Made by a program: the position numbers and the translations under genes
The notes under the pieces: model-generated
What the model was told of the DNA's origin: nothing
Database searches by the model: none
The model's input: only the letters and a program-made list of their open reading frames with translations
In this document: positions 2,603-22,187 of the stretch, one piece after another
Layout: each line of letters starts with the position of its first letter
How positions within the stretch are numbered: position 1 is the first letter of the stretch
IMG/VR virus record: IMGVR_UViG_2061766007_000697
From: an uncultured virus (IMG/VR IMGVR_UViG_2061766007_000697)
Taxonomy: Duplodnaviria; Heunggongvirae; Uroviricota; Caudoviricetes
DNA: 42,723 nt
Reading direction: 5' to 3' (one strand)

Positions 2603-3368
2603 ATGAAATACAGTGAATTTAAGAAAGAAGCAGGTATAGGCGATGTTGCCTCCTGGGCTGGTAGCAAGATAAAAGATAATCTTGGTGTCTGGTCACCTAT
2701 CCCGGTTGGTAACCCCTTTAAACGGGATAGTTATCGTGTTTTTACACCGTTTGCAGAAAAGACAAATGCCTTTTCAGAGGGCCCAACNNNNNNNNNNNNN
2801 NNNNNNNNCAAGACTTCTGAGCAGAAATGGAATGCTTTTCAAGCTGATGCTAGGAATCAGGTAAATAAAAATATAGGGGTGCTTGATGCAGCTAGAGCTG
2901 TAAAGTCAGATCTTCAGTCTTATGGTATTAACCTCAATCCGTTGGATCTTAAGGGTGGATTCGATACAATGCGTAAGACCTGGAAAAACATAACAGGAAA
3001 CAAAGAAGAGAGTGCTTTTAATAAGCTGAAGAATGATGCTATAGCATCTTCTGATATGAAAGCAGCTGCAGATCGTTTCATCCAGTCTTCTGATATTAGT
3101 GATATCGCAACATATCAAAAGAAAGTAGATGAAATGGCCGCAANNNNNNNNNNNNNNNNNNNNNNNNNNNNTTACAAACGGTATGCGTTCGAAAGTATGG
3201 GATGGAATAAAAGCAGATCCCATCAAGAATATTCCGGCTGCTGCAGGCATCTTCCTTAGGCAGATGGGAATGGGCAAAGCTGGTGACTTTATGTCGAATC
3301 CTATAGCGTTCTATGGTTCTATTCTGGGTCTGATTGGTGGCGGACTTTTACTGGGTAGCAGACGATGA
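2603..3368 (+). CDS. putative internal virion protein with C-terminal hydrophobic Gly-rich helix
   Basis: ORFs 2603-3259 and 3129-3368 join across an N gap; N-terminal FKKEAG motif; C-terminal FYGSILGLIGGGLLLG. Confidence 0.6.
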
Positions 3369-4141
3369 GCTTCGATCGTAACACTATATCAAAATGGCTT
3401 GATCCTGTCAGGAAGCGTGTAGCCAGTCCTACNNNNNNNNNNNNNNNNNNNNNNNNNNNNNNNNNGGCTTGGTGTCGGATTGTGGGAAAATATCATTGAG
3501 ACAGGCGGCTCTCTTGGCAGATATCCTATTCGCAAGATGACAGGCATGTCCAATGCAGAATATGATCAGGCTATGGAGGACCTGGCAACAGACGACCGTT
3601 ATCGTTGGCTTGTGCCGTCTGCACTAGGGCTGATGCTTGGTGGTGGCTACCTTGCTCTGCGTAACAATCCAAACCAGGAACAAGGTGGCAGACATACATG
3701 GGTGCCAAAAACAGCGTCGCTTAATAAAGAGGCTGATGAGTTGTGGTCTTATGGCGGCTATGTGCCAGAGATCGATTTCAGCCAGGTAATTAATGCCAGA
3801 GACGCTAAGTCTATGTTCACAAATGATCCTGCCATTGTAAGCAATCCATATGTGAAGAACACCGGTGTTGCTATCATCAACTCTGCAGCACAGCGGGCTG
3901 GCTATGTGAATCCTACTTTAGGTGATATCTATGATGCAACACGTGAGAAAGAAAAAAGCAAACTCTCATGGGCAGGCGTCACAGAGGTAGCCGCTAACAC
4001 AATGCTGGCCAANNNNNNNNNNNNNNNNNNNNNNNNNNNNNNNGTGCACTTGGTGCTGTTATGCCATTATCTGCCGATGCTAAACGTAATATCATAGATG
4101 CCGGCACGTGGGCAACTGCTATTACATCCATATTAAATTAA
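3365..4141 (+). CDS. putative internal virion protein
   Basis: ATG overlaps previous stop (ATGA); reads MSFDRNTISKW... through two gaps to ...TAITSILN-TAA; KTAS/KEAD motifs and a hydrophobic segment. Confidence 0.6.
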
Positions 4142-6033: not shown

Positions 6034-6513
6034 ATGATCGATAAGAAAGAGATGCTCATGAAGGTTGCCTCTTATGATAAGGTGGCCTGTGTGCTTGCAA
6101 ATACTGTTATGGCTTATGGCGAACTTAAGAAGAAAGCTATTTTTGATGGTAGCGAATGGCAGGATTGGATGACTAGAAAAGATGCCATTGAGCCATCGAA
6201 CCAGCAGCACCTGAGGGCGCAGGATAATGGCGCTCTTACAAGCTTCCTGACATCGCTTGCGATTGGTGGAGGCTTAGGCTATCTCGGAGATAAATTTACA
6301 GGGGGCAAGCACACAAGCGATGCGGTTCTCGGCGGCACAGCTATAGGTGGTGGTTTGGCATTACTCGCAAATCTTGCCGGAAAAGGCGCTGGCTATGTTA
6401 TGCCGACAAGGACTAAAGAGCAGCATGACAAATATCAAAATAGCGGCACAGCTGCTGAGTGGCTTATTCCAGGCGTTGCAAATTATAATAAAGTTAAGAC
6501 TTATGGCTATGCT
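6034..6513 (+). CDS. putative internal virion protein, Gly-zipper-like (3' end lost in gap)
   Basis: AAGGA RBS; KVAS/DKVA/KKKA motifs; GGGLGYLG...GGTAIGGGLAL; the ORF track wrongly fuses it to the RNAP gene across the gap. Confidence 0.6.
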
Positions 6514-6654
6514 NNNNNNNNNNNNNNNNNNNNNNNNNNNNNNNNNNNNNNNNNNNNNNNNNNNNNNNNNNNNNNNNNNNNNNNNNNNNNNNNNNNNNNN
6601 NNNNNNNNNNNNNNNNNNNNNNNNNNNNNNNNNNNNNNNNNNNNGCAAGTAATC

Positions 6655-7380
6655 ATGCCTGATACCACCGGTACAGTTAATAATTTGATTAGAGCTCAGC
6701 AGAAGTTTATTGCAAATACTCTTGCTGGCCCCAAGGATGTTAAGATCTTCCGTATGGATGACTACCCGACCATACGGAAGGTTCTGTTTGATAATGTGAA
6801 AAGCGCTATCTCTCAGCGTTTCCCTCTTTACAATGATAGATATACGCTGACTATAGAAGACGTTGATTATGATGACCCAGAAGAGGTAGGCATCGATAAA
6901 CAGAAACAAGCTATTCTAGATGGTACATCTGTGACAAGACGTCTTCGCGGCAGCTGGGTCCTTCGTGATGCAAAGACAGATAAGGAAGTTAGTCGTACAA
7001 AACGTATGACCCTGATGTCTGTGCCCTATATCACTGATAGAGGAACATTCATTCGTAATGGCCATGAATATGCTTTCTCTAACATTATGCGAATGGAACC
7101 AGGAGTATATACAAAGCAGCGCGATGATGAGGTGTCTGCGCAGTTTAACATCAAGAAGGGCACAGGTGCTGGTTTTAATATGTATTTATCACCGAGTACC
7201 GGTATCTTCAAGATCAAGCGCAATACAACTAGTTGCCCTGCTTATACTGTTCTTCGTGATATAGGCGTCACCGATGACCAGATGAAAGAGGCCTGGGGAC
7301 AGGAACTCTTCGATAAGAACAAAGCAGCGGGCTCTGACGAGAAAGCTTCAATAGCAGCTAATAAAATATATAACATGTGA
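6655..7380 (+). CDS. rpoB: RNA polymerase beta subunit, stand-alone N-terminal fragment (~241 aa)
   Basis: VPYITDRGTFIRNGHEYAFSNIMRMEPGVY matches the bacterial RpoB motif [30 protein letters not shown]; upstream segment matches the RpoB N-terminal region (DYDDPE...GTSVTRRLRG). Confidence 0.85.
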   Translation: MPDTTGTVNNLIRAQQKFIANTLAGPKDVKIFRMDDYPTIRKVLFDNVKSAISQRFPLYNDRYTLTIEDVDYDDPEEVGIDKQKQAILDGTSVTRRLRGSWVLRDAKTDKEVSRTKRMTLMSVPYITDRGTFIRNGHEYAFSNIMRMEPGVYTKQRDDEVSAQFNIKKGTGAGFNMYLSPSTGIFKIKRNTTSCPAYTVLRDIGVTDDQMKEAWGQELFDKNKAAGSDEKASIAANKIYNM

Positions 7381-7388
7381 GTTTCGCT

Positions 7389-8253
7389 ATGAATATAGTT
7401 ACTGTATACAAGCAGATGGAGAAGAAGGCCGCNNNNNNNNNNNNNNNNNNNNNNNNNNNNNNNNNNNNNNNNNNNNNNNNNNNNNNNNNNCAGGGAACTT
7501 TTGGTCAGATTGGATCTAATCTGAAGAATTGGTTTGGTCAGAAGTCCTGGGACTTTAGGCACGGTTTAGATACATTGTTTGGTACCAAATCAACATATGG
7601 CGAGAAGCGCCCACAGGATAAATCCTTTAATGGTAGTTTTTGGGGTGCGATTAATCNNNNNNNNNNNNNNNNNNNNNNNNNNNNNNNNNNNNNNNNNNNN
7701 NNNNNNNNTGCAGGCCGAGCAGACCGGCGCTAAGATTAATGTCAATAAGAACAGTGACTACAATCGCGCTATTTATCTGCCAGAGAATCAGGTCTTCCAG
7801 CGTATGGCTAATGAAGAAGCCCTTGGTCAGCAGTATGATCAGCTTAGGGCCCGTGGCATGTCCAATGAGCAGATTGCTAATTATGTCATGCAAGAGAAGT
7901 ATCTTCCGCTTGTTAGAGACGTTACTGGCAAACAGAACATCAACAGCTCTATGAAGCTTACAGATGAAAACTGGAATACGATCAAGAGCAAGATGTTGGC
8001 TAGACAGATGAACGGTGTTAAGCAGAATCTTGAGAAGGTTGATCCAAATACAGGCTTCTCTAACAAAGAATATAACAGCGAGCTCTATAATAAAGATTAC
8101 CAGAACGCATTGAAGAGTAATATGGATGCCAAGGTTGATGCCCTGCGCAAAGGTCAGGATCCATCTAAGACAAAAGTTACATACTCTGATGTGATCAATA
8201 ATAACAAAGCCATGCAGGACGCTGTGAATAAGGCGACCAAGAATAATTGGTAA
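7389..8253 (+). CDS. putative internal virion protein
   Basis: MNIVTVYKQMEKKA start; ORFs 7377-7733 and 7579-8253 join across gaps. Confidence 0.5.
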
Positions 8254-8264
8254 TAGGAGCAATC

Positions 8265-8781
8265 ATGAATCCTTCTAAGATTTTTACTGATATCGTTAAT
8301 GACTCGGCTAATGTCGAGTTTGTGAACCAGCTGAATCTTATTCGTAAGACAGCGGCCTCTAATGCTATTATAAATACTGTTTTGAATAATGGTGTGTATA
8401 CAGCAGCTAAGCCGACTGCATTACAATCTATGACCAGCTGGATCAAGGCTAATCCGTGGAAATCCGGTATGATCGGAGGCGCTGCTCTTGGTGCTGGTGG
8501 TGTCGCTGCTAATACTGTNNNNNNNNNNNNCTGGTGGTATAGCTGATGATCCGGTTGTTAAAGCACTCAGTAATCCCACTAAAATGAACACAGCACAGAA
8601 GATCAATACTGGTATTGGTACTGCGGCCGGACTTGCTGGTGGTGCTGGCTTATACGCATTACTTGGTAATATCCCAGGTATTAAACGCAAACCACTTCTC
8701 AAGGCTATTCTTGCTACACTTGGCGGTGGTGTTATTGGTTATGGTGCTTGGAGAGCGGCTGACAACTATCAGAAGGCCTGA
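8265..8781 (+). CDS. Gly-zipper-like putative internal virion protein
   Basis: AGGAG RBS, ATG 8265; RKTAAS motif; three Gly-rich hydrophobic helices; joins across a short gap. Confidence 0.6.
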
Positions 8782-8783
8782 AT

Positions 8784-9556
8784 ATGCCCGATTCATACGA
8801 AGAGTGGAAAAATTACGATCCAGACGATCCGCAGTATCTGAGCACTGCTGAACGCTGGCAGCAAAAATCGGATGCCGTTATGGGGCATGCGAAGAATTGG
8901 CTTAACAGCGTCGGTCAGGATGTTGGAACTGGTGCTGCCGGGTTTGCTGCTGGTACTGGGCTTAGACTGCTTGGTACAAGTGCCCCGAAAGCACTGGTTC
9001 GTAGCGGTATCCCGGCCAAGATTATAAAGAGACTCCCTTGGGCTCCTGCTCGTGCAATTGGTACAGGTCTTCAGTGGCTTGGCGGTACCCAGATGACATG
9101 GGCACCTATTGTTGCAACTAGACAAACGATTGATGATATCACACAACCTGTAGAGCCACCACAAACTGATGCGCAGCATCTGAAGAAATGGTTTAAGAAT
9201 ACAGGCACTGGTGTTGGTATTGGCCTTGGAGTAGCTGGATTAGGTGGTGCGATTTCTTTGATACCTGGTGGACAAATTATTGGCCTGCCGTNNNNNNNNN
9301 NNNNNNNNNNNNGGAATCTACTGCAGAGTTGTGGATAGATAAGCTTTTCAGAAATGGTAAACCACGTCCGACACCTCCACCAGAAATGCCAAAGCCTAAA
9401 AATAACTATAAAGCCAATCTGTACGGTGCAGCTATTCCAGGAATGGCCGGTCTAGTTGGTGGCTACGCTCNNNNNNNNNNNNNNNNNNNNNNNNNNNNNN
9501 NNNNNNNNNNNNNNNNNNNNNNNNNGAATAAAGCAAACCAATCAAATATAGGATAA
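8784..9556 (+). CDS. Gly-rich putative internal virion protein
   Basis: ORFs 8784-9338 and 9329-9556 probably one gene across gaps; several GxGxGxG hydrophobic segments. Confidence 0.5.
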
Positions 9557-9562
9557 TATAGT

Positions 9563-10315
9563 ATGAATTTCAACACTGTTTATAATAGAAGCTTTCAGAA
9601 GCTTGCTGGGCGTTATAATACGCAAAGCACAAGTGAAGCGTACATGAATAAATCTGCCATGGATAAGAAAGCTAATGTTTTGCTTGGTGTATTAGCTCTT
9701 GCCCTTGGCGCTGGTATAAACGCAGGCATCGGTGCAGGAATAGGCGCCGGCATTAATAAGCTGCGAGATAAAGATGTCCGTTCTGGTGCTATTCGAGGTG
9801 CTGGTATCGGTGGTGGTCTTACAATCGGTAGTGCTTTGGGCGGTGAACTTGGACAGGCACTTACCGGTACACTGGAGGGCGGTGCTTTTGGTAATCTTGT
9901 TGGTCTGCCTATTGGTGGTTATCTTGGAAATCGTGCCGCAACCGATTATATGAAGCGGAATCCAGGAACAACAAAGAGCGCTTCTTATAGACAGTTTAAG
10001 GAAGCAGCTACTGCGACTCCTGCAGCATTTGCAGCGCCGCAAGCAGTCCCGGATGCACTGACACCTTTTAAATTCAAACCAGCAGAAGATCCTAAAAAGG
10101 CAGTTGGCAATGCTCAGATGGATCTGGCTGCCGCTGCAGAGGGGGTTGGCGCTAATACACCACAGCAGCCCATCAGTGACCAAGATATAGCTGCAAAAGC
10201 GATTGAGACTGTTGATAAAGGTAATCAGGCTTTGCTGAAATATCTCACACAGTCCAAGAAAAATGATCAGGCTGCGCAGCAGGCATACCAGCAACCTGCG
10301 AATCCTGTGGTATAA
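9563..10315 (+). CDS. Gly-zipper-like putative internal virion protein (250 aa)
   Basis: intact ORF; QKLAG, NKSAM, DKKAN, TKSAS motifs; GAGINAGIGAGIGAG repeat. Confidence 0.7.
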   Translation: MNFNTVYNRSFQKLAGRYNTQSTSEAYMNKSAMDKKANVLLGVLALALGAGINAGIGAGIGAGINKLRDKDVRSGAIRGAGIGGGLTIGSALGGELGQALTGTLEGGAFGNLVGLPIGGYLGNRAATDYMKRNPGTTKSASYRQFKEAATATPAAFAAPQAVPDALTPFKFKPAEDPKKAVGNAQMDLAAAAEGVGANTPQQPISDQDIAAKAIETVDKGNQALLKYLTQSKKNDQAAQQAYQQPANPVV

Positions 10316-10377
10316 GCCTGTTCAATTTACATTTTTACCTTGATACTATAACAAACCATACATGAAAGGTATTCATT

Positions 10378-10622
10378 ATGATCGATTATACTGATCTTAT
10401 TATCAAAGTTGCTTCTATCCTGGAAGACCAGGAAGAAGAGATGCTGCAGAAGGAAGCTGGCGTCGGTGCTCTTCGTGGCGCACACAAGCTCATGCTCAAG
10501 AATATTGCCAGAGCCTCCTCTGCTACTCCGTCCGCTGTTAACAAGCTTCGTGCTCAGGGTCTTGTCGCCAACGTTAAAGGTATGCCGAATGGTACCAAGC
10601 TTCTGCTGGCTCCTGCGGCTGG
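10378..10622 (+). CDS. putative internal virion protein, 5' fragment (rest in gap)
   Basis: AAAGG RBS; IKVAS and QKEAG motifs. Confidence 0.55.
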
Positions 10623-11154
10623 NNNNNNNNNNNNNNNNNNNNNNNNNNNNNNNNNNNNNNNNNNNNNNNNNNNNNNNNNNNNNNNNNNNNNNNNNNNNNN
10701 NNNNNNNNNNNNNNNNNNNNNNNNNNNNNNNNNNNNNNNNNNNNNNNNNNNNNNNNNNNNNNNNNNNNNNNNNNNNNNNNNNNNNNNNNNNNNNNNNNNN
10801 NNNNNNNNNNNNNNNNNNNNNNNNNNNNNNNNNNNNNNNNNNNNNNNNNNNNNNNNNNNNNNNNNNNNNNNNNNNNNNNNNNNNNNNNNNNNNNNNNNNN
10901 NNNNNNNNNNNNNNNNNNNNNNNNNNNNNNNNNNNNNNNNNNNNNNNNNNNNNNNNNNNNNNNNNNNNNNNNNNNNNNNNNNNNNNNNNNNNNNNNNNNN
11001 NNNNNNNNNNNNNNNNNNNNNNNNNNNNNNNNNNNNNNNNNNNNNNNNNNNNNNNNNNNNNNNNNNNNNNNNNNNNNNNNNNNNNNNNNNNNNNNNNNNN
11101 NNNNNNNNNNNNNNNNNNNNNNNNNNNNNNNNNNNNNNNNNNNNNNNNNNNNNG

Positions 11155-11540
11155 CGCAAAGAAGCAGGATCTCTACAAGATATGCTTACTATGCATAATC
11201 CGCTATCGCATGTAGATTATCTTAAAGACCAAGCCTCTCGAAATGGTTGGAGTAAAGTATTATTCGGACGCGGTGATGAGGGCTATGTGGATTATCTTAT
11301 GCGGACTGGAAAAGTAGATGCTAATAATGATTCTACTGCTATGAAGAGATATAATGTTTTTTATAATGGCTGGGNNNNNNNNNNNNNNNNNNNNNGGATT
11401 ATGGTGATGGTCTCCTTGCAAAGACAAAAGCATTCTTTGGTTTAAAGCCAGATCAGATAACGCGCACAGGAACCAGACCAAATTATCTAATTTTCAAAAA
11501 GCCAGGTATATGGGATAACCTGAAGAATATGTTTAGTTGA
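11155..11540 (+). CDS. hypothetical protein, 3' fragment
   Basis: RKEAGSLQ... continues across a short gap as DYGDGLLAK...WDNLKNMFS-TGA; may or may not be the same gene as 10378. Confidence 0.5.
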
Positions 11541-11557
11541 TATTTGTTGACTTCTCT

Positions 11558-11588
11558 GCCCTCCCCTCAACGAGGTGGAGGGCTTTTT
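11558..11588 (+). terminator. rho-independent terminator
   Basis: GCCCTCC-CCTC-AAC-GAGG-T-GGAGGGC hairpin followed by TTTTT. Confidence 0.75.
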
Positions 11589-11640
11589 CGTCTACATTAA
11601 TTATAAGACGCGCAAGCTTTTTGTAATAGGAGACATATGT

Positions 11641-14600
11641 ATGAATGACCTCAATGTGAACCAGCAGCCTCAGACGACAGAGTCTGTTGANNNNNNNNNN
11701 NNNNNNNNNNNNNNNNNNNNNNNNNNNNNNNNNNNNNNNNNNNNNNNNNNNNNNNNNNNNNNNNNNNNNNNNNNTGCTTGCTACTTCAAAGAAATTACTT
11801 GGTATCTCTAAGCGCGAACAGGAACCAGATCCTAAGGACTCTCTTGCTTTTCAGCGTTTCTATGGCCCTGAGATGCTGTTCCAGGAGCGCATTCTTCGTG
11901 ATGGTGGTAAGCTTGCTCGTAACATCCTGTGGAAGGCGACTAATAGAGGCAATCTAGACTTCATGCCAGTTGGAGCCCTTGATAAGCATATCTCTTCTGT
12001 TTTCTATGATAGCAAGCTTGCACAGATGATGGATGGTTCTTCGCCACTTGAGACCATTGACTCTGCCTATAAGACTACACGAATTGGTGAAGGCGGTGTT
12101 GCATCACAGGATAGCGCACCAGATGAGATGCGTACTGTGCAGCCAAGCTATTTTGGTTTTATTGATCCTGTGAGATGCTTTGCCAAAGGCACAGAGATCA
12201 AGACAGAGTCTGGTTGGAAAGCTATTGAGGATCTCACAACAGAAGATAAGANNNNNNNNNNNNNNNNNNNNNNNNNNNNNNNNNNNNNNNNNNNNNNNNN
12301 NNNNNNNNNNNNNNNNNNNNTATGAGGATGATAATGTTGCTTTCTGTGTGACACCGCATCACAGGCTCTATATCAAAAAAGATGATGGTTGGGATATTGC
12401 TTTTGCTGAAGATGTCTATGGAACAGAGGTTATTATCAACCTTTCTGAGACAGATGAACAACTTTATAAGTTAGAAAAAAGATATTGGTATGAGCAAAAG
12501 AATGAAGACTTTGTTTATTGNNNNNNNNNNNNNNNNNNNNNNNNNNNNNNNNNNNNNNNNNNNNNNNNNNNNNNNNNNNNNNNNNNNNNNNNNNNNNNNN
12601 NNNNNNNNNNNNNNNNNNNNNNNNNNNNNNNNNNNNNNNNNNNNNNNNNNNNNNNNNNNNNNNNNNNNNNNNNNNNNNNNNNNNNNNNNNNNNNNNNNNN
12701 NNNNNNNNNNNNNNNNNNNNNNNNNNNNNNNNNNNNNNNNNNNNNNNNNNNCAGAAAGCACAGGTAACCAAAGACGGCTCTATCCCTGGTTCTACACAGA
12801 GCGGTCTTGCAGCTGTTTATCCAATCCGCACAACTGTTGCGAAATTCCCGCCTAAGCGTAACTGGTTCTATAAAATCGTCCTTAGATCTGGTCGCTCCTT
12901 GATTACATCTGCTGATCANNNNNNNNNNTCCCGCCTAAGCGTAACTGGTTCTATAAAATCGTCCTTAGATCCGGCCGCTCTCTGATCACATCTGCTGATC
13001 ACCGCTGGTCTGTTCTTCGCAATAACCGTTATAGACTTATTGATGCCAAGGATCTGAAGCCTGGTGATATGGCGCTGCGCTCTACTTTCAAGGATGTCAT
13101 TTCCAGACGCACCTTTGTCAATGGCATGCTGGTTAATAAGGATCTTGCCACCGTCTTCGGTTATATTGCCCGCTCCCTGTCGCAGCCTGACAGCTATAAG
13201 ATGCGCATTTCCATTCCAGAAGATCGCTATAATTTCGTCATGCAGCAGCTTGCACGCATCGGATTCACAGAAGGCTTCAATACCTATTATATGAATGTCG
13301 GCACTTTCTGCATCGGCATCCGTGATGAGAAGTTTAAGCTCTTCCTGAAAGAGTCTTTTGGCGCCACCGATAGAGAACGCAAGATCCCTGATTTCATTAT
13401 GTCTGCCAACGCTGCTATCGTTAGTGCCTTCCTTGATGGTTATACAAACGATCCTACTAAGGTTGGCCGTGACTCTGCAGACGACATCTGGATTCTTGAT
13501 ATACCGAACACTGCTGTGCGCGATTCGCTCGCTTTCCTTTTTGCCAGAATCGAAACAGACACCCTTTATAGAGATACCACAGTAGATGGTGAGATGGAAA
13601 TCGCAATGAAGCTGGTTCCTATGGATCCGCGCTACGGTGATATGATTCTGGATGAGATCAAGGTTATCAAGAAAGGCATCTCTGCGCCTATTATGGTGGA
13701 TATCGATGTCAACGATAATCTTTATGCTGTTGCCAATGGTATCGTGACGCACAACTCCAAGTACCCGCTGCAGGCTATCAGTGTTGAGAATCGTGAGGCG
13801 CCTCTTGTCCGTGGTCTTGATGAAGCCAGCGGCAAGGATATGCAGACGCTTATTGGCAAATATCTTGGTGCGCGGTTTGCTCCTCGTGACGGTGTTGTTA
13901 CCGCTGTCAGGAAGGATCGCATCGATGTCCGTTATGATGACGGCAGTAAAGGGAGCATTGATATGTATGTCAACTTCCCAATGAATGCCAAGGGCTATAT
14001 CAACAACACACCCAGAGTCAAAGCCGGACAAGCCTTTAAGAAGGGTGATTGTCTTGCTAGCAGCAATTATACAGACGATAAAGGTGTGGCCGCGCTTGGT
14101 ACGAATCTGCGGTCTGCTTGGATGTCTTGGAAAGGCGGTACATACGAAGATGCCATTGTTATCAGTGAGAGTGCTGCTAAGAAGCTGACCAGCACCACCA
14201 TGTATAAGACAGCCGTGGATCTGGATAAGACTGTAAAGCTTGGTAAGCAGAACTATATGACATGGAAGCCTGGTGAGTTCAGCAAAGAGCAGATGGAGAA
14301 TCTGGATGCTAACGGTATTGTGAAGCCTGGTACTATTCTGCATAAAGAAGATCCTATGATCCTGGCAGTGAGGATGACAGAGCCTTCGCCTGGTACACTG
14401 GGTAAGCGCATCTTGACCGATATGAGCGAGAGATGGGAACATGATCATCCTGGCGTGGTTACTGATGTTGTCAAGACCAGGAAGGGCATCAAAGTTTATG
14501 CAACTGTTACGGCACCTGCAGAGGTTGGTGACAAGCTGTCAGGGGGCTATGGTAACAAGGGTGAGATTTCTCAGATTCTTCCTGATGATGAGATGCCTAC

Positions 14601-17600
14601 AACGAAAAAAGGTGAGCCAATTGATATATTACTGAGCCCGCTTGGACTTATTTCGAGGACGAATAATTCGCAAATTTATGAGGGATTACTTGGTAAAGTT
14701 GCAGCCAAAACAGGCAAGACTATTACAGTCCCGCAGTTCTTCGATAGGCCTATTCCTGATTTCGTTGCGGAACAGCTCAAACAGAACCACATAGAACCTG
14801 ATGAGGATCTTGTTGATCCCTCGACAGGCAGGGTTATGCCTAATATAACCACAGGTATATCTTATATATACAAGCTGAAACACCTGGCTGAATCTAAGAT
14901 GTCGGCTCGCGGTACGTCGACATATGATGCTGAGGGTCTTCCTGGCGGTAAGGGCATGGACGGCTGCTTCCCAGGTCCGCAACTTGTTATGACCAGCGGA
15001 AGCTATAAGGCCATCAGCGCACTCGCATTCTCTAAGGACGTGAATCAGGTTGGTACTTGCACAGAGAAGGGCGAGTTCTGCTACTATCCTTCTATTGACT
15101 CGTTCAGAAAGCTTGTGCCGCCCAGCGATCTTATCAGCATTGTGCCTAAGTGGTCATTTGGTCCTAAAGGCTTCCTGGCACATACCATTATTCCAATGAC
15201 GCCTACTAAGAACCATGCCATCTATATGTATAATGGTATGATTCAGAAGCATGCTGGGGATATCAAGAGTGGAGATAAACTGGCGGGNNNNNNNNNNNNN
15301 NNNNNNNNTTACAGGTGCTCGCCAACTTGATATCTTCTACTGGCATGGTGGATGACGATAGGCTCACAGTTACGTATGATGACGATCATGCCGCGCTGGC
15401 TATATTCAAGTGTGGTATCCTTAAAGGGCTGCATGCTCACATCAATGAATATAGACACACTATTACTGTTCCTCACTATTCGCTCTACGAAGCTGCACTG
15501 CAGGAGCAGGATTTTGGTGAGCTATATAAGTGCTTACAGCTGTTGGATGGACATGGTGCTGATGATGATGCAGAAACTGTTGCCAAGTACATTCCTTGGT
15601 CTATTATCCCAGAGAGCAGAAGTGAGCTGAAAGCTGCTGTTAAGGCGCTGCAGGAGAAGGAACCTGTTAAAGAGATCGATACCAAGACGCACCTTGGGTT
15701 GATGCCTATTGTTGTGGACAAGATTGAACCTTATAAGACAGATAAAGAACTCGTGCGCGTATACGACCTTACTATCGATACTACGCATAGATATATTCTG
15801 TTTGGCGGCTATGTGGTCAGTAACTCTAAACGCTTTGGCACACTTGAACAGTCTGCCATGGCCGGACACAACGCCTTCGATATTATTAAGGACAGTAAGT
15901 ATATCCGTGGCCAGAGTAATTCGGATTTCTGGCGTAATCTTAGAACTGGTGACATTCCCACTATTCCTGGTGAGCCGCTTGTTCATAAGAAGTTCTTTGC
16001 GCATCTGACTGGTGCTGGTGTTAATGTTAAGAAGACTCCTCAGGGTGTGTCTATCTTTGCTCTGACCAATAAGGATGTGAACGAGCTGGCCGGTCCTCGT
16101 GAGGTCAAGAGCCGCGATACCTATGAGGCCAGAACTTTCAGACCGATTGATGATGGTTTGTTTGGGCAGAACGTATTTGGCATTAACGGCGATAAGTGGG
16201 GCTACATACAGTTGGACGAACCTGTGCCTAACCCTGTTATGGAAGAGCCGCTTGCTCGCCTGCTGAATATTCCTGAGAAGAAGTTCGCTGATGTTGCTTC
16301 TGGTAAGGAAGAGATCAATGGTATCAAGGGTGGCGCCTCTATGAAGGCTGCACTTGAGAAGATTGATCTTGGTGCCGAGAGTGCGAAGGCGTTGAATAAC
16401 TACAAGACCATGACTCCTAGCGGTAAGGATAAGGCGCTGAAGCGGTATGTGGCTATTGAACGCATGAGACGCGCTGGTGTTAAGCCTTCTGATTATATGC
16501 TGGACAAGATTCCTGTCATTCCTCCTATATATAGACCCATTACAAGCTATAACGGTCTTACAATGGTCGCTGATAGTAATTACCTTTATGCGCAGCTGCT
16601 GGATGCGAGAGATGACGCCAGAGAGTCCAAGAATCTGCCTCAGGAGTTCCAGGATCAGGCCAGAGAAAATATTTATACAAAGTGGAAAGAGTTGACCGGC
16701 CTTTATGCGCCCCAGGATGTTAAGCTTCAGAGCAAGCATGTTCAGGGGTTGCTCAAGTGGGCTCTTGGTGACAGTCCAAAATTCTCAGCGCTGCAGCGCA
16801 AGGTACTGAGTGCCACTGTTGATACTGTTGGCCGTGGTGTTGTGGTTCCCGATCCGAGGCTGCGAGTCAATGAGCTTGGTATACCAGAAGTAATGGCTTT
16901 CAATATCATGGGCCCGATTGTTGAGCGAAAGCTTGTCAAACAGGGCTACACACCTTTGCAGGCTATGGAGAAGGTGAAGAAGCAGGATATTCAGGCGAGA
17001 GATGCACTGAATGAAGTAATGCGCGACCATCCTGTGCTTATGAATCGTGCGCCTACCCTGCATAAGCTTGGTGTTATGGCATATAAGCCCAGACTGGTAG
17101 CAGGTCATGCGATTCATGTAAATCCTTCTACAGTAGTGCCATTCAATATGGACTTTGATGGCAATTGTTGTGATTATGATAGCAAGATTTTCTTGAAAAT
17201 ATCGAAATCTCAATACAATAAAGTTGATGTGAGTTATGTTAATTGTGTATCCGGAAACAACTATGAAAAGGAGACACAATCCATGAAACTTCCATTCGAC
17301 ACAAAAATCACTGCTCACGACATCGATGACAACGACTACGTTTGCATGAAGATTGGGGAATTTCCACGCATCGGTACACCTATCAAAGACAAGAATGGGG
17401 CAGACTGCTATGCCGTTCCTTCTGGCATTCAGGTTCTTTCCTGTGACCCAAAATCTGGTAAGGAATGCTGGCAGACTGTGAAGATGCTGACTGTCGAAAA
17501 TGACTGTGACACTGTAAAAGTTAAACTCGGCTCTAGAGAGCTTATTGTCTCTACCAACGAGTCCCTCGCTGTTTTCGACCACGAGACTGGTAATCTTAAA

Positions 17601-18899
17601 AAGGTTGCTCCAGATAAGGCAGGCATCTCTATGGTTCCTGTCTTTAAGAGGCAGCCTGCGCCGTTTGGTACTTATGGCGATCGTGATCTTGGGTGGATGA
17701 TGGGTGCATTTATCTCTGATGGCTGGAGAGCTGGTAATACTATCGGCTACGCCAAGCTTGAAGCCTCTAAGCGCGATGAGTTTGTTAGAATCATCAGAGC
17801 GCACCACGAGAACTTCACTGTCAAGATCTATGAAGAGAACGCCAATGTGCAGTCTGATTCCTACAAGCTTGGCAACTCTGTTAAGATTCATCTTAATAGC
17901 AGCACCCTTGTCGCCTGGTTCGATCAGTGGAGTTTTGTCAGCGATGACATCAAGGATAATCTTGATGGTAAGCGTACTGCCCTGTATAAGCAGGTTCCGC
18001 AGTATCTTATCGACTACGGCAGCGAAGACTTCCTCTGGGGACTCTTTAGCGGCTTGATTGATGGAGATGGTAGTATTGCTAAGAATATGGCTACTGGTAG
18101 GCCTCGTTGGTCTGTNNNNNNNNNNNNNNNNNNNNNNNNNNNNNNNNNNNNNNNNNNNNNNNNNNNNNNNNNNNNNNNNNNNNNNNNNNNNNNNNNNNNN
18201 NNNNNNNCCTCCACCATTGACATGTATCAGAATTTAGATAAGCTGACGTGCATCGGGGAACGGGAACAAGAGCTTATTACAGAGTGGACGTCTTGCGCGC
18301 CGTCTAGGGACACGTATGATGTTGTGCCGATAAGCCAGAATGAATATACAGCGCTTAAGTTGTTTGTGACACAGGATAGCGACAGCAGCCTGTATGCAGC
18401 AATCATGAGGACTAAGGGCACTGGCTGCAGGGCTAATCGCACGCTTTTGATGCGTCATGTCGAAGAGATCAAGGAATACATACCTTCGCTCTATGATCGC
18501 ATTATGGCTACAAATACTATCTGGGAAACTGTATCCAGTGTTGAGCCTGCTGGTAAACGCCAGGTGTTCGACTTCGAGGTTGAAGGCACTAAGGTCTTTG
18601 CTATCAACAACGGTGTTGTGATTTGGGACACAGTGAATATTCATGCCCCGGTCTCTGATGACGCGCGTAAGGAAGCGTATGCCAAGATGATGCCTGAACG
18701 CAATCTGATTGGTATGCGCTCGCGTGAGATCCTCTATAAGCCTGAAAAGGAATACCAGCAGGGTCTGTATATCGCCACTCGCATGAAGTCTGGTCCAGAT
18801 GTACGCACACACTACTTTAACACGTTGGAAGAAGCAAAGCAAGCTTATCGTGACGGCATTATCGACGTCGACGACCCCATTGTAATCAAATCAAAATAA
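11641..18899 (+). CDS. rpoBC: RNA polymerase beta(C-part)-beta'(N-part) fusion precursor containing four inteins
   Basis: AGGAG RBS. Beta motifs: SKLAQMMD..PL, GTYEDAIVISE, GDKLSGGYGNKG, SPLGLISRTN, YKLKHLAESKMSAR, KRFGTLE. Then, with no stop, beta' motifs: TFRPIDDGLF, IPVIPPIYRP, VDTVGRGVV, NRAPTLHKLG, NMDFDG. Frame breaks occur only at N gaps; continuity across those gaps is inferred. Confidence 0.9.
12176..12520 (+). mobile_element. intein 1 (mini-intein) in beta region D; C-terminus in gap
   Basis: FIDPVR|CFAKGTEIKTESGWKAIEDL (block A), VTPHHRLY (block B), FVYC (block F start); site equivalent to RpoB CPIE|TPEG. Confidence 0.85.
12752..13755 (+). mobile_element. intein 2 with degenerate LAGLIDADG-type endonuclease domain; N-terminus in gap
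   Basis: LITSADHRW (block B), IPDFIM...AFLDGY, VDIDVNDNLYAVANGIVTHN|S; C-extein SKYPLQA equivalent to RpoB RALMG|xNMQRQA. Confidence 0.85.
14965..15824 (+). mobile_element. intein 3 in the beta C-terminal GG-QRFGEME motif
   Basis: GKGMDG|CFPGPQLVMT, TPTKNHAIY (block B), VYDLTIDTTHRYILFGGYVVSN|SKRFG. Confidence 0.85.
17166..18629 (+). mobile_element. intein 4 (atypical, Asp-terminated) with LAGLIDADG homing endonuclease, in the beta' catalytic loop
   Basis: NMDFDGN|CCDYDSKI; WMMGAFISDG and LFSGLIDGDGS endonuclease motifs; VFDFEVEGTKVFAINNGVVIWD|TVNIHAP, after which beta' homology resumes. Confidence 0.85.
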
Positions 18900-18920
18900 T
18901 TTATATACAGGAGCATTTCT

Positions 18921-19398
18921 ATGCACAACTTCGATAACGTCATGAAAGGTTTTAACAAGAGAGCCACAGCCGTGCTGANNNNNNNNNNNNNNNNNNNNNN
19001 NNNNNNNNNNNNNNNNNNNNNNNNNNNNNNNNNNNNNNNNNNNNNNNNNGGGAGGGGCGCCTGCTGGTGCTCCTCCGATGGGCCCCGCTGCCATGGGTGG
19101 TATGCCTCCTGCTGGTGGCGCACCAATGGATCCGGGTGCGATGGGCGGCGCTCCCGCAGCTCAGGGTTCAGGCGGGGGTGAAATTCCTCCTGAAATTCTT
19201 CAGGACCAGCTCTTTATGCAGTTCCTGCAGGCGATGGGTGTGATCTTTGACCAGCAGACGGGCACTTTCATGGATCCTAATGGACAACCCCTTAGCGTTG
19301 ATGAGGTTATGCAGATTTATGACATGTTTCAACAGCAAGTCGCGGCGCAACAGGGCGCTGCTCCTGAAGGAGGCACTGCGGGTGGCGAAGCCATGGGT
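18921..19398 (+). CDS. low-complexity Pro/Gly/Met/Ala-rich protein (3' end in gap)
   Basis: AGGAG RBS; MHNFDNVMKGFNKRAT joins the 19078 frame across a gap (MGGMPPAGGAPMDPG...). Confidence 0.6.
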
Positions 19399-19891
19399 NN
19401 NNNNNNNNNNNNNNNNNNNNNNNNNNNNNNNNNNNNNNNNNNNNNNNNNNNNNNNNNNNNNNNNNNNNNNNNNNNNNNNNNNNNNNNNNNNNNNNNNNNN
19501 NNNNNNNNNNNNNNNNNNNNNNNNNNNNNNNNNNNNNNNNNNNNNNNNNNNNNNNNNNNNNNNNNNNNNNNNNNNNNNNNNNNNNNNNNNNNNNNNNNNN
19601 NNNNNNNNNNNNNNNNNNNNNNNNNNNNNNNNNNNNNNNNNNNNNNNNNNNNNNNNNNNNNNNNNNNNNNNNNNNNNNNNNNNNNNNNNNNNNNNNNNNN
19701 NNNNNNNNNNNNNNNNNNNNNNNNNNNNNNNNNNNNNNNNNNNNNNNNNNNNNNNNNNNNNNNNNNNNNNNNNNNNNNNNNNNNNNNNNNNNNNNNNNNN
19801 NNNNNNNNNNNNNNNNNNNNNNNNNNNNNNNNNNNNNNNNNNNNNNNNNNNNNNNNNNNNNNNNNNGTTTTATTTGCAAGAAAGGCTAATC

Positions 19892-22187
19892 ATGCCTACT
19901 ACTCTGGGACGTGAGCTCGTTAGGGACAAGCTTCCCGATAAGTATAAGCCCTATGCGGATCAAGTTCTGACGAAGAAGGTCACCACAGCGTTGATGACCG
20001 AGATCGCCAAAGAAGACCCTGATGGATATATTGATGTCCTTCAGGGCCTGAACAATCTTGCTCAGACTGTTGTCTCCACCTATGGACGAGATGCTGCACT
20101 GCCTTTTCGTGATATGAAAATATCCAAAGGCATTCAGCAGCTTAAAGACAAGATGAAAGCTATTGTTGATAAGGTCCTGGATGACGACAGCCTGACACCG
20201 GCCCAGAAAGAAGAAAAGATCAAAGAGCTCGGCTACAAGTACACACAGAAAGTGGAAGACGCTGTATTCGACGATAATGATAAACGACACACAGCGCTTG
20301 CCTCGCAGATCAATTCAGGCTCACGTGGTAATAAGACGCAGCTTCGTCAGATGCTGTTTGGCAATATGCTGATGAAAGATGCGCTGAACCGTGACATGCC
20401 TTATCTTGGTTTGGATGCCTATGCCAATGGCGTGACACCGACTAATTACTGGGTATCAGCATCATCCGGTCGTAAAGGCTATTACGACGTTCAGATGGCA
20501 ACAGGTCAGTCTGGCTATCTAGGAAAACGAGTTACAGCTGCTACACATGATACTATCATAAGTGAGGATGATTGTGGGACTACTGATACTGGTGTTCCTT
20601 ATCCTGCTAATAGTGATAAAAACATAGGTGCTGTACTGCTGAAGCCGTTCCATAATCATCCAGCAGGCTCTATTGTGGATGCGAAGATGGTTGCAGAGGC
20701 AGACGATGACNNNNNNNNNNNNNNNNNNNNNNNNNNNNNNNNNNNNNCTTGTAAGAGCAAGAACGGTGTTTGCGCTAAATGCAACGGGCTAGGCGAGAAT
20801 GGCAAGTTTCCTGGAATCGGTGAGTATGTCTCACTGAATGCTGCTCGTTCGTTTGTTGAGCCTCTTACACAGGCGTCTATCGGTTGTCTGGCTGGTGATA
20901 CAATGGTGCGCATGTTTGATGGGCCGGCCAAGGCTATCAAGGNNNNNNNNNNNNNNNNNNNNNNNNNNNNNNNNNTAACACGCTTCTATAGCCACGGTAC
21001 AAAAGAGATGTATCGTTGGTCTTTCTCTAATGGTACTACACTGGATTGCACAGCCGACCATAAGATAATGTTTATAGAAGCCATGCTTGCTCTCTATTGC
21101 GGTGATGGCCAGCGTTATTACACCTATAGAGAAAGGCCAATCGGCGAGATCAATGCTATCGAGTATGGCGTGCCTGTGTTCGATGGCAATCATAAGGTTG
21201 CCGAGCATCTTATAGGTCCGACTAAGGAATATCTTGNNNNNNNNNNNNNNNNNNNNNNNNNNNNNGATAGATCATCCAAGCCATATGTTCCTTTTGAATA
21301 ATGGGCTTTGTGTGAGCAACTCCAAGCATTCTGGTGGTGTCGGTGGTAAGAAGGTTATAGATCCAGAGGGCGAAGATCAGCCAACTGGTTTCCGCAATAT
21401 AGAGCGTATGTTTACCACGCCATCTAACTTCCCTGGTGGAGCGGTGCTTACTCCTATTGATGGTACAGTGTCCTCTATCCAACCAGCAGCGCAGGGTGGT
21501 ACTTATGTTACAGTCGGCAATAAAACTCTCTATTGCAGTCCCTATAGAACAGTGACTGTGAAGAAGGGCGATAAGGTCTATGCCGGTGATATGCTGACAA
21601 ACGGCGTGCCTAACCCGATGGAGGTTGTGGCATTGAAGGGTCTTGGTGCAGGTCGCATCTATTTCATGAATAAGATGAATGACATCCTTAAGAAGAGCGG
21701 AGCAGGTACAGCCAGACGCAATCTTGAATCCTTCACCCGCGCCTTCCTTAATAAAGTAGAGATCACTAATCCGGATGGCTATGAAGATTATCTGCCAGGT
21801 GACATTGTCAATTACAGCAATATCATGGCGGATTATGAGCCACGTGAAGATTCACAGTCCCTTGCTCCCGATAAAGCCATTAACCAGTACCTTGAGAAGC
21901 CTGTCCTATATTATACAATAGGAACACGCATTACTCCAGAAGTCGCTTCTACACTAAAGAAATATAAATTCAATGATGTACTGGTAAACAAGAATGAGCC
22001 CTCGTTTGCTGCTCGCTTTATGCGCCCCGCCGAGGGCTTGCAGCACGATAAAAACTGGTTGCCTCGTCTGTCTGGTGAGCGCCTTAAAGAAGGGTTGTTT
22101 GATGCAGCTCGTCAGGGAATAACCGATTCTTATGATTCCCCGAGCTATGTTGATAAGATCATCATCAACCCAATAAAGCCTAATTGA
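19892..22187 (+). CDS. rpoC: RNA polymerase beta' subunit, C-terminal fragment with one intein
   Basis: MPTTLGR (TTVGR), INSGSRGN, bridge helix GRKGYYDVQMATGQSGYLGKR, EDDCGT, C...GVCAKCNG Zn site, trigger loop EPLTQASIG|SKHSGG, NWLPRLSGE; joins across the gap at 21237. Confidence 0.9.
20885..21320 (+). mobile_element. intein 5 (mini-intein) in the beta' trigger loop
   Basis: QASIG|CLAGDTMVRMFDG, LDCTADHKI (block B), IDHPSHMFLLNNGLCVSN|SKH. Confidence 0.85.

Follow-up and report, generated by a model that had tools for sequence, protein, structure and literature searches.

Predicted three-polypeptide RNA polymerase of a cattle-gut phage, with a beta-beta' fusion, a detached beta N-terminus and five inteins

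In Helicobacter and Wolbachia, rpoB and rpoC are fused such that the C-terminus of the RNA polymerase beta subunit is joined to the N-terminus of beta', with both subunits complete and with alpha and omega kept. In cyanobacteria and plastids, beta' is cut in two (rpoC1 and rpoC2), and in cyanobacteria there is no fusion to beta. In the accessible text of two jumbo-phage reviews, the polymerases of phiKZ and AR9 are described as beta/beta' enzymes that lack alpha and omega, consist of split subunits and occur in a virion-packaged form (PMC7824862, PMC13282480). In these, beta and beta' are each split and never fused, there is no sigma-70 homologue and there are usually two paralogous sets (PMC7824862, accessible text). 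In Salmonella phage Arash, beta is fused in frame to the N-terminal part of beta' (beta'N; gp206, 1525 amino acids, aa), the C-terminal part (beta'C; gp216, 606 aa) is separate, and the sigma factor is gp10. The accessible parts of the Arash paper just list gp206 and gp216 as beta and beta' subunits, and place both proteins and gp10 among the most abundant virion proteins (PMC10585845). In Vibrio phage D181 (L002, 8265-13779), the first piece of beta comprises 514 aa, and a free-standing homing endonuclease gene separates it from the rest. Here, we describe the RNA polymerase genes at 6655-22187 in an uncultured virus record (IMG/VR IMGVR_UViG_2061766007_000697), a 42.7-kb stretch of mostly plus-strand phage DNA (42,723 nucleotides, nt) that is called the window throughout.

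We consider it very likely that these genes encode the sole RNA polymerase of a cattle-gut phage of ~165-180 kb, a bacterial-type beta/beta' enzyme of three polypeptides. These are an N-terminal piece of beta (betaN), the rest of beta fused to beta'N (betaC-beta'N), and beta'C (Table 1). A reading made earlier from the letters alone (the original prediction) had proposed three genes with both catalytic barrels on one chain. This was right, and the layout is kept in relatives that contain no gaps. As in Arash, beta and beta' are fused, beta' is cut before the TTxGR motif, and the portal gene is a neighbour of the polymerase genes within the structural module; a phage sigma factor is encoded by Arash and by relatives of the window. 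However, gp206 holds the whole of beta, has no annotated intein and is about as long as the intein-free chains here, whereas the window has a separate betaN and five inteins, four in the fused gene and one in the beta'C gene. The original prediction had spoken of inteins in general terms, and the number had gone unnoticed. Compared with the Helicobacter and Wolbachia fusion, beta is cut, beta' is re-cut and the zinc-binding stretch of beta' is missing.

A tblastn search with the junction region matched 35 phage records. Full-length matches (100 % of the query covered) at 27-28 % identity were to Vibrio phages D181, D148 and D69 and to Salmonella phage Arash. Four nearer relatives in IMG/VR, L003-L006, are 66-80 % identical, and three of them are on records of 164-179 kb. 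In all four, the order is a betaN open reading frame (ORF), 1.6-5.8 kb of other genes, a stop-free fused ORF of 1574-2575 aa, one or two ORFs, and beta'C.

Table 1. Positions of polymerase genes, their inteins and the ORFs between them in the window
Feature	Position	Strand	Basis
betaN gene, 241-aa N-terminal piece of beta (~E. coli beta 1-235)	6655..7380	+	translation, profile match, relatives
Fused precursor gene, rest of beta (from ~E. coli beta 426) and beta' to ~E. coli 553, four inteins	11641..18899	+	Pfam, PDB, contigs, L003/L006 ORFs
Intein 1a, N-terminal part (DPVR/CFAKGTEIK..., block B VTPHH)	12176..12520	+	sequence; whole form in L003
Intein 1b, LAGLIDADG type (block B ITSADH, ends GIVTHN/SKYPLQ), in beta ...MG/S... 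motif	12752..13755	+	Pfam Intein_splicing 5.8e-07
Intein 2 (GMDG/CFPGPQ..., block B TKNH, ends YVVSN/SKRFG), in beta GGQRFGEME-type motif	14965..15824	+	sequence; relatives
beta/beta' junction GVNVKK-TPQGV	16017..16049	+	in frame, no N, no stop
Mg-binding loop and intein 3 (DFDGN/CCDYDS...NNGVVIWD/TVNIH)	17151..18644	+	sequence, E. coli alignment, family survey
beta'C gene (MPTTLGR...; bridge helix, trigger loop, C-terminal module), one intein	19892..22187	+	Pfam Rpb1_5, PDB, orthologues
Intein 4, mini-intein in trigger loop (TQASIG/CLAGDT..., block B TADH, ends LCVSN/SKHSGG)	20885..21320	+	sequence; relatives
ORF between fused gene and beta'C, low-complexity PMDP/MGG repeats	19050..19889	+	start in or before N run 18979-19049; ends FICKKG*
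Non-polymerase ORF	7389-8253 (approx.)	+	ORF lists
Non-polymerase ORF	8265-8781 (approx.)	+	ORF lists
Non-polymerase ORF	8784-9556 (approx.)	+	ORF lists
Non-polymerase ORF	9563-10315 (approx.)	+	ORF lists
Non-polymerase ORF	10378-11445 (approx.)	+	ORF lists

The fused gene starts at an ATG at 11641 (MNDLNVN...), which the alignment matches to the first residue of its L003 orthologue, and closes with a TAA at 18897-18899, at about residue 553 of E. coli beta'. Removal of the four inteins leaves a mature chain of ~1130 aa. The Pfam models Rpb2_3, Rpb2_6, Rpb1_1 and Rpb1_2 match along the gene. The match to RNA_pol_Rpb2_6, the catalytic double-psi barrel region of beta, has an E value of 6e-54 (184 bits; cut-off 23.4) and that to Rpb1_2, the beta' catalytic domain, one of 8e-21. 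Together with Rpb1_5 in beta'C, these matches complete the search with Rpb1 and Rpb2 models that had been proposed as a check with the original prediction. Between 15309 and 18115, Rpb2_6 lies upstream of the junction and Rpb1_1 and Rpb1_2 lie downstream on the same chain, and the proposed fusion is thus upheld by domains of both subunits in one stop-free chain. The claim that beta runs without a stop into beta' stands for this stretch, which contains neither N nor stop codon, but not for the whole gene as it appears in the window, where the frame jumps at runs of N (N runs) and continuity comes from contigs and relatives.

The junction reads ...GAGVNVKK-TPQGVSIFALT..., and the alignment crosses it in L003-L006, Arash and D181. 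It is also spanned by single contigs from public cattle-gut metagenome runs, referred to here as X1 (12929-16431), X2 (15663-17548) and X3 (15220-18115), and L003 has one unbroken 2575-aa ORF across the equivalent of the fused gene. The beta' part of the gene aligns with residues 162-464 of E. coli beta'. The N-terminal zinc-binding stretch of beta' is missing, with ~75 residues and no cysteine cluster compared with ~160 residues in E. coli.

The ATG of the beta'C gene (19892) sits 2 nt past the stop of the preceding ORF. The cut in beta' had been placed correctly just before the TTxGR motif, as beta'N ends at the TAA at 18899 and beta'C opens MPTTLGR. The beta'C chain matches Rpb1_5 (E 7.4e-11) and, among PDB entries, residues 660-1005 of Streptomyces beta' (E 1.3e-27), and its mature length after removal of the intein is ~615 aa, with intein-less orthologues of 615-617 aa in L004-L006. 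The cyanobacterial and plastid rpoC1/rpoC2 cut is at nearly the same place. Residues 126-137 of beta'C align with residues 120-129 of the cyanobacterial beta' chains, so that the C-terminal pieces (RpoC2 in cyanobacteria) start within ~10 residues of each other. However, phage beta'N ends ~65 residues short of the end of cyanobacterial gamma; the phage has therefore lost that segment. The two splits are of independent origin, and the earlier statement that the cyanobacterial cut lies near, but not at, the phage cut holds roughly on these figures.

No sigma, alpha or omega family was found among 38 ORF pieces from the window searched with Pfam or 40 searched with PHROGs, in agreement with the original prediction that these genes are absent from it. 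Three relatives' records (CheckV 93-100 %) each contain one Rpb2_6, one Rpb1_2 and one Sigma70_r2 locus, the last of these far from the polymerase genes in all three. Neither alpha (PF01000, PF01193) nor omega (PF01192) was found in any of these three near-complete records. In control searches for the subunits, matches were obtained in 14 of 14 genomes, and for sigma in 10 of 14. With a fused chain in the window and one set plus one sigma-70 gene in three of three relatives, the phage does not belong with phiKZ and AR9, whose sequences are also much more divergent, whereas the window gives strong Pfam scores. The contrast with phiKZ and AR9 drawn in the original prediction thus holds roughly.

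In the mechanism that we propose, the five inteins would splice out post-translationally and the three chains would assemble non-covalently. The covalent tether between beta and beta' may substitute for the alpha-dimer assembly platform, which is absent in these phages, and a phage sigma-70-family factor encoded elsewhere would direct initiation. The enzyme would probably be packed in the virion and injected, and would transcribe early genes, as in Arash. Placement of the genes in the structural module beside the portal, where the enzyme of Arash is abundant in virions, argues for this. In the window, ORF 816-2597 resembles the Arash portal (tblastn E 4e-49) and, among the ORFs downstream, a head maturation protease and a major head protein are weakly matched in PHROGs. 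Alternatively, the enzyme may be real but not a virion component, being made after infection and used in middle or late transcription only. Arash is the single phage from which packaging in this clade would be extrapolated, and the polymerase chains do not carry the K-x-A leader seen on neighbouring ORFs (described below). However, this is the only polymerase set in the relatives and, taken with the position of the genes, this makes a purely post-infection role unlikely, if by no means far-fetched.

The polymerase region contains 18 of the 55 N runs in the window, which total 4719 bases. N runs do not keep the true length, and reading frames shift across several of them, a point overlooked in the original prediction. 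As N runs misstate the true length, the naive polymerase ORF ends at 12325, 12767 and 15330. DNA nearly identical to the window is present in cattle-gut metagenome runs from three studies, one of which may be its source. In contigs of four runs, including X3 and X4 from other studies, the N run at 15288-15308 is truly 28 letters (21 N and 7 more), which restores the frame. The N run at 18116-18207 is truly 128 letters rather than 92 in contigs of three runs, and 130 counted from 18113 in a fourth. In the beta'C gene, the N run at 20711-20747 is 9 letters too long (contigs of two runs) and that at 21237-21265 should be 25 letters, i.e. 4 fewer (contig of one run, from a possible source sample). 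The N run at 12919-12928 has a 43-nt exact repeat on both sides. The 83 nt at 12846-12928 (43-nt exact repeat and 10 N) are a duplicate and an assembly artefact, namely an unmerged contig overlap, and two runs, each from the possible source sample, have contigs in which 12845 is followed directly by 12929. A flanking direct repeat was found at only 1 of the 55 N runs, so that most of them are not unmerged overlaps. Where letter counts were reported, the gap lengths from public contigs put the frame of the fused gene back. Long reads across the gaps had been called for with the original prediction, and the public contigs and the four ungapped relatives do give continuity, with no genuine stops at the gaps that they resolve. 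An alternative genetic code was also weighed as a reason for the broken frames but was rejected, since long ORFs are terminated by each of the three stop codons and the frame is lost at N runs.

Intein 3, a LAGLIDADG-type intein, occupies 17166-18629 (488 codons including an N run) in the loop of beta' that binds the catalytic magnesium (Mg). Its block B is TNES instead of TxxH, there is no penultimate His and the last residue is Asp. The loop, NADFDGD in bacterial-type enzymes, reads NMDFDGN, and the Asn (17163-17165), which is the residue before the intein (-1), aligns with D464 of E. coli beta', a catalytic Asp that is conserved universally. This combination of DFDGN with an Asp-ending intein in the catalytic loop had been missed. 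The intein-less L004 and L005 read DFDGD/TVNIH, and the window and L006 (11294-12910) read DFDGN/C...(V/I)IWD/TVNIH. No further gene for the beta' catalytic domain is present in L006. In run X3, DFDGNC is likewise read at a loose contig end.

The association was surveyed in two sets of proteins (P0001-P0263). The first consisted of 120 listed proteins matching the intein region (123 at E<=1e-5). Among them, 96 have an insert starting with Cys (Cys1), which in every case is preceded by Asn at -1 and ends in Asp, with Thr as the next residue in 92 and Ser in 4. The 15 without an insert all have Asp, as do 4 with other insert types (at -1), and the junction was not located in 5. In the second set, 143 further proteins found with betaN, the site could be located in 64: 40 have no insert and Asp, 5 have an Asn at -1 followed by a Cys1 insert that ends in Asp, and 19 have other inserts with Asp at -1. 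Over both sets, Asn is found in the loop in 101 of 101 carriers of the Cys1 intein and in none of 79 non-carriers (55 intein-less and 24 with other inteins, all DFDGD). Throughout the intein 3 family, block B lacks the His (consensus S.NES), and the penultimate residue in the first 96 is Trp (53), Tyr (37), Phe (3), Gln (2) or Arg (1).

In the interpretation that we favour, an Asp at -1 would be incompatible with a Cys1 thioester, as it would lead to premature cleavage, and the mature enzyme would work with Asn in the loop (DFDGN), although we know of no report of an Asp-Asp-Asn metal site in any natural RNA polymerase of the multisubunit type. As carriers always have Asn and non-carriers never do, the mature enzyme may instead regain Asp, the Asn at -1 being converted during or right after splicing. 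To our knowledge, such splicing-coupled conversion is not part of known intein chemistry, and we give it little credence beside the tamer alternative of a polymerase active with Asp-Asp-Asn. Inteins with a C-terminal Asp or Gln have reportedly been treated in a paper in the Journal of Biological Chemistry, and intein 3 also ends in Asp. The Tko CDC21-1 intein, like intein 3, has no block B His (PMC4031507, accessible text). Intein 3 differs from Asp-ending, histidine-poor inteins in its Mg-loop site and in the constant Asn at -1 in place of the catalytic Asp. A literature search found no description of an intein in the DFDGD/Mg loop or of a link to DFDGN.

Inteins recur at this site, which lies between the third Asp and the Thr, and at least two other insert types are found in this hot-spot. 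In one, the first residue is Ser or Thr and the last is Asp. In the other, the insert starts with a residue that is not a nucleophile (A, Q, L, K, E or Y) and ends LSN/T; because it lacks a nucleophile at its start, it may use a class 3-like route. The other insert types were seen at the hot-spot in P0101, P0103, P0104, P0109, P0124, P0132, P0135, P0162, P0170, P0177, P0178, P0195, P0218 and P0263.

Both the naive frame breaks and the DFDGN loop could be taken as signs that the polymerase genes are decaying pseudogenes and that the phage depends on the host enzyme. However, the breaks all lie at N runs and the frame is restored where contigs give the true length, the relatives have open frames with conserved motifs, and the constancy of DFDGN in all 101 carriers, which are diverse, points to selection and not to decay. 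We therefore regard pseudogenes as very improbable.

The betaN gene forms the distal part of an ORF at 6034-7380 that is interrupted by an N run (6514-6644); the portion past this run opens MPDTTG at 6655, and the ORF closes with a TGA at 7378-7380. betaN alone matched neither Pfam nor PHROGs, in common with most of the window. However, a profile of betaN and 20 homologues matched bacterial beta N-termini in the PDB (E 1.3e-11; E. coli beta 115-220). At its head, the fused gene aligns with E. coli beta 426-561, which means that the beta lobe is missing and that beta was cut within the linker standing in its place. The end of betaN (...AANKIYNM) and the beginning of the fused chain (MNDLNVN...) match the continuous linker of the fused proteins P0124 and P0126 residue by residue, and the two halves together retain every residue of the fused relatives. 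The claim that beta is split after ~240 aa is thus confirmed by a real stop codon, and a separate betaN ORF of 241-242 aa is present in all four ungapped relatives.

As this family is rich in inteins and the betaN stop is TGA, the two pieces of beta might be rejoined, either by trans-splicing, with a split intein, or because the TGA at 7378 is read through or recoded. However, the alignment to the continuous linker reveals no intein blocks, betaN and the fused gene are 4.3 kb apart with five ORFs in other frames between them, and each of the three stop codons terminates long ORFs in the window; rejoining is accordingly given hardly any weight. Least probable of all is that the separation is a scaffolding or assembly artefact and the real phage has a whole beta, as the more distant Arash, P0124 and P0126 do, since, for all the N runs and the one proven assembly duplicate in the window, the stop after ...KIYNM and the next ORF start 8 nt on lie in N-free sequence, contigs of runs X1, X2 and X3 cover 6645-7432, the four relatives have the separate ORF followed by 1.6-5.8 kb of other genes, and standalone betaN-like proteins of 242-252 aa (P0121, P0122 and P0125) occur in the representative library.

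A search with betaN found 1182 representative clusters at E<=0.001, of which 360 were at E<=1e-30. Among 205 proteins in which 150 or more residues of betaN were aligned, 134 are fused (>=1100 aa), 56 are of intermediate length (perhaps truncated or cut elsewhere) and 15 end at the betaN end. A maximum-likelihood tree built from the betaN region places the window, L003-L006, P0121, P0122, P0123 and P0125 in a nine-row clade (support 99) in which all are split and which is nested among fused sequences. From this nesting and the continuous linker in P0124 and P0126, the fusion is therefore ancestral and the betaN cut came later. The betaN fission happened once, in the ancestor of this small subclade, and the cut in D181, elsewhere in beta, arose independently within the family. 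On these data, a beta-beta'N fusion with a separate beta'C is the standard arrangement in a very large phage family that includes the cultured Arash and D181. The novelty claimed for the core layout was therefore overrated, as it is the norm in a huge family with sequenced phages (Arash gp206/gp216, D181) and only the betaN fission is specific to the subclade. Whether the layout had already been characterised in a described lineage was raised with the original prediction: it is present in Arash and D181, but no paper describing or discussing the fused-and-split layout was found in the literature. The accessible text of PMC7824862 and PMC13282480 does not mention the family, and for RHph_TM30 nothing was found on the polymerase.

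The five inteins were compared with class 1. Inteins 1a, 2, 3 and 4 begin with Cys after the extein. Block B has the form Thr-x-x-His in 1a (TPHH), 2 (TKNH) and 4 (TADH) and is SADH in 1b, with intein 3 (TNES) deviating. A C-terminal Asn followed by Cys, Ser or Thr is seen in 1b (THN/S), 2 (VSN/S) and 4 (VSN/S), and intein 3 (WD/T) again deviates. The N run at 12521-12751 conceals the last part of intein 1a, ~112 aa of beta extein and the first part of intein 1b. The full arrangement in L003 is DPVR/C...WCHQ/SPES...(112 aa beta)...RLQMG/CLHPD...THN/SKYPLQ, and intein 1b, which aligns to an intein of L003-L006, begins with Cys there. The L003 copy of intein 1a (2984-4090) ends WCHQ/S and thus has a C-terminal Gln and not Asn.

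Inteins are absent among the relatives at exact boundaries: 1a from L004 and L006 (which read DPVR-SPES), 2 from L004-L006 (...G-SKRFGSLE), 3 from L003-L005, and 4 from L004-L006, where the alignment is contiguous, although L003 has intein 4. By this exact-boundary presence and absence, the inteins of the polymerase genes are mobile. At 20901-21323, strains in the cattle-gut runs X3 and X4 have 444 different letters replacing 421 letters of intein 4, and this trigger-loop site may thus hold a divergent allele of an intein in those strains.

The ORFs interposed between the polymerase genes are of two kinds. The five cassette ORFs in 7389-11445 have no Pfam or PHROG match, and tblastn at E<=1e-5 matched none of them in six related loci. 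The part at 6034-6513 also lacks a Pfam or PHROG match, and its sole tblastn match covers 54 residues, to L005. Counterpart ORFs in the relatives have no tblastn match to those of the window, and none of the three scanned with Pfam matched. This hypervariable set around betaN occupies 6034-6513 and 7389-11445 in the window, 815-2286 in L003, 920-6778 in L004, 184-1307 and 2039-6782 in L005, and 1263-6824 in L006. The cassette ORFs are rich in Gly and Ala, many with GxxxG repeats and weakly hydrophobic segments; the set contains glycine-zipper segments, and one member per genome has a conserved motif like ...PSLRKRRLLRALIALG.... The PMDP/MGG-repeat ORF has homologues at the same place in L003-L006 (L003 10148-11191; L004 11645-12604), with a conserved core LPPE..QDQMF.QF...G...D..SG.F.D.NGQP. 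It has no Pfam or PHROG match, and Atlas look-alikes are weak (<=0.86).

Most interposed ORFs start with a leader of the form hydrophobic-hydrophobic-K-x-A-(A/S/G), often after M..TY.EF, and the PMDP/MGG-repeat ORF has the same leader in the relatives. We take this leader to resemble the capsid-targeting sequence of T4 internal proteins. Considered with the Arash virion proteome, it suggests that these proteins are co-packaged, and the leader-bearing ORFs are probably internal or ejection proteins that accompany the polymerase.

Several points weigh against the interpretation of these genes as the working, packaged polymerase of the phage. Expression, splicing and activity are predictions for both the window phage and its close relatives, and packaging is extrapolated from a relative just 27-28 % identical. 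The missing alpha and omega were judged solely from Pfam models. In the fused gene, gaps 11691-11774, 12252-12320 and 12521-12751 are bridged only by joints without inner letters or by extrapolation from L003, whose arrangement means that the last of these, a run of 231 N, must hide ~470 nt. Finally, canonical splicing of intein 3 would leave Asn for the third Mg-binding Asp, and the enzyme could be crippled.

What is new in the window is the derived third cut, the heavy intein load and the conserved Asn-for-Asp tied to one intein lineage. From the perfect association of that Asn with the intein, either the aspartate triad tolerates change more than has been supposed, or the intein restores the triad. 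The family would represent a third kind of phage multisubunit polymerase beside those of phiKZ and AR9, near-bacterial, dependent on sigma, lacking alpha and omega, and freely re-cut. It reveals the joints in beta and beta' at which fusion and fission are tolerated, and would offer a minimal bacterial-type core for structural work. The small subclade shows a natural order of events, in which fusion was followed by a later fission and a cassette of variable genes was inserted at the cut.

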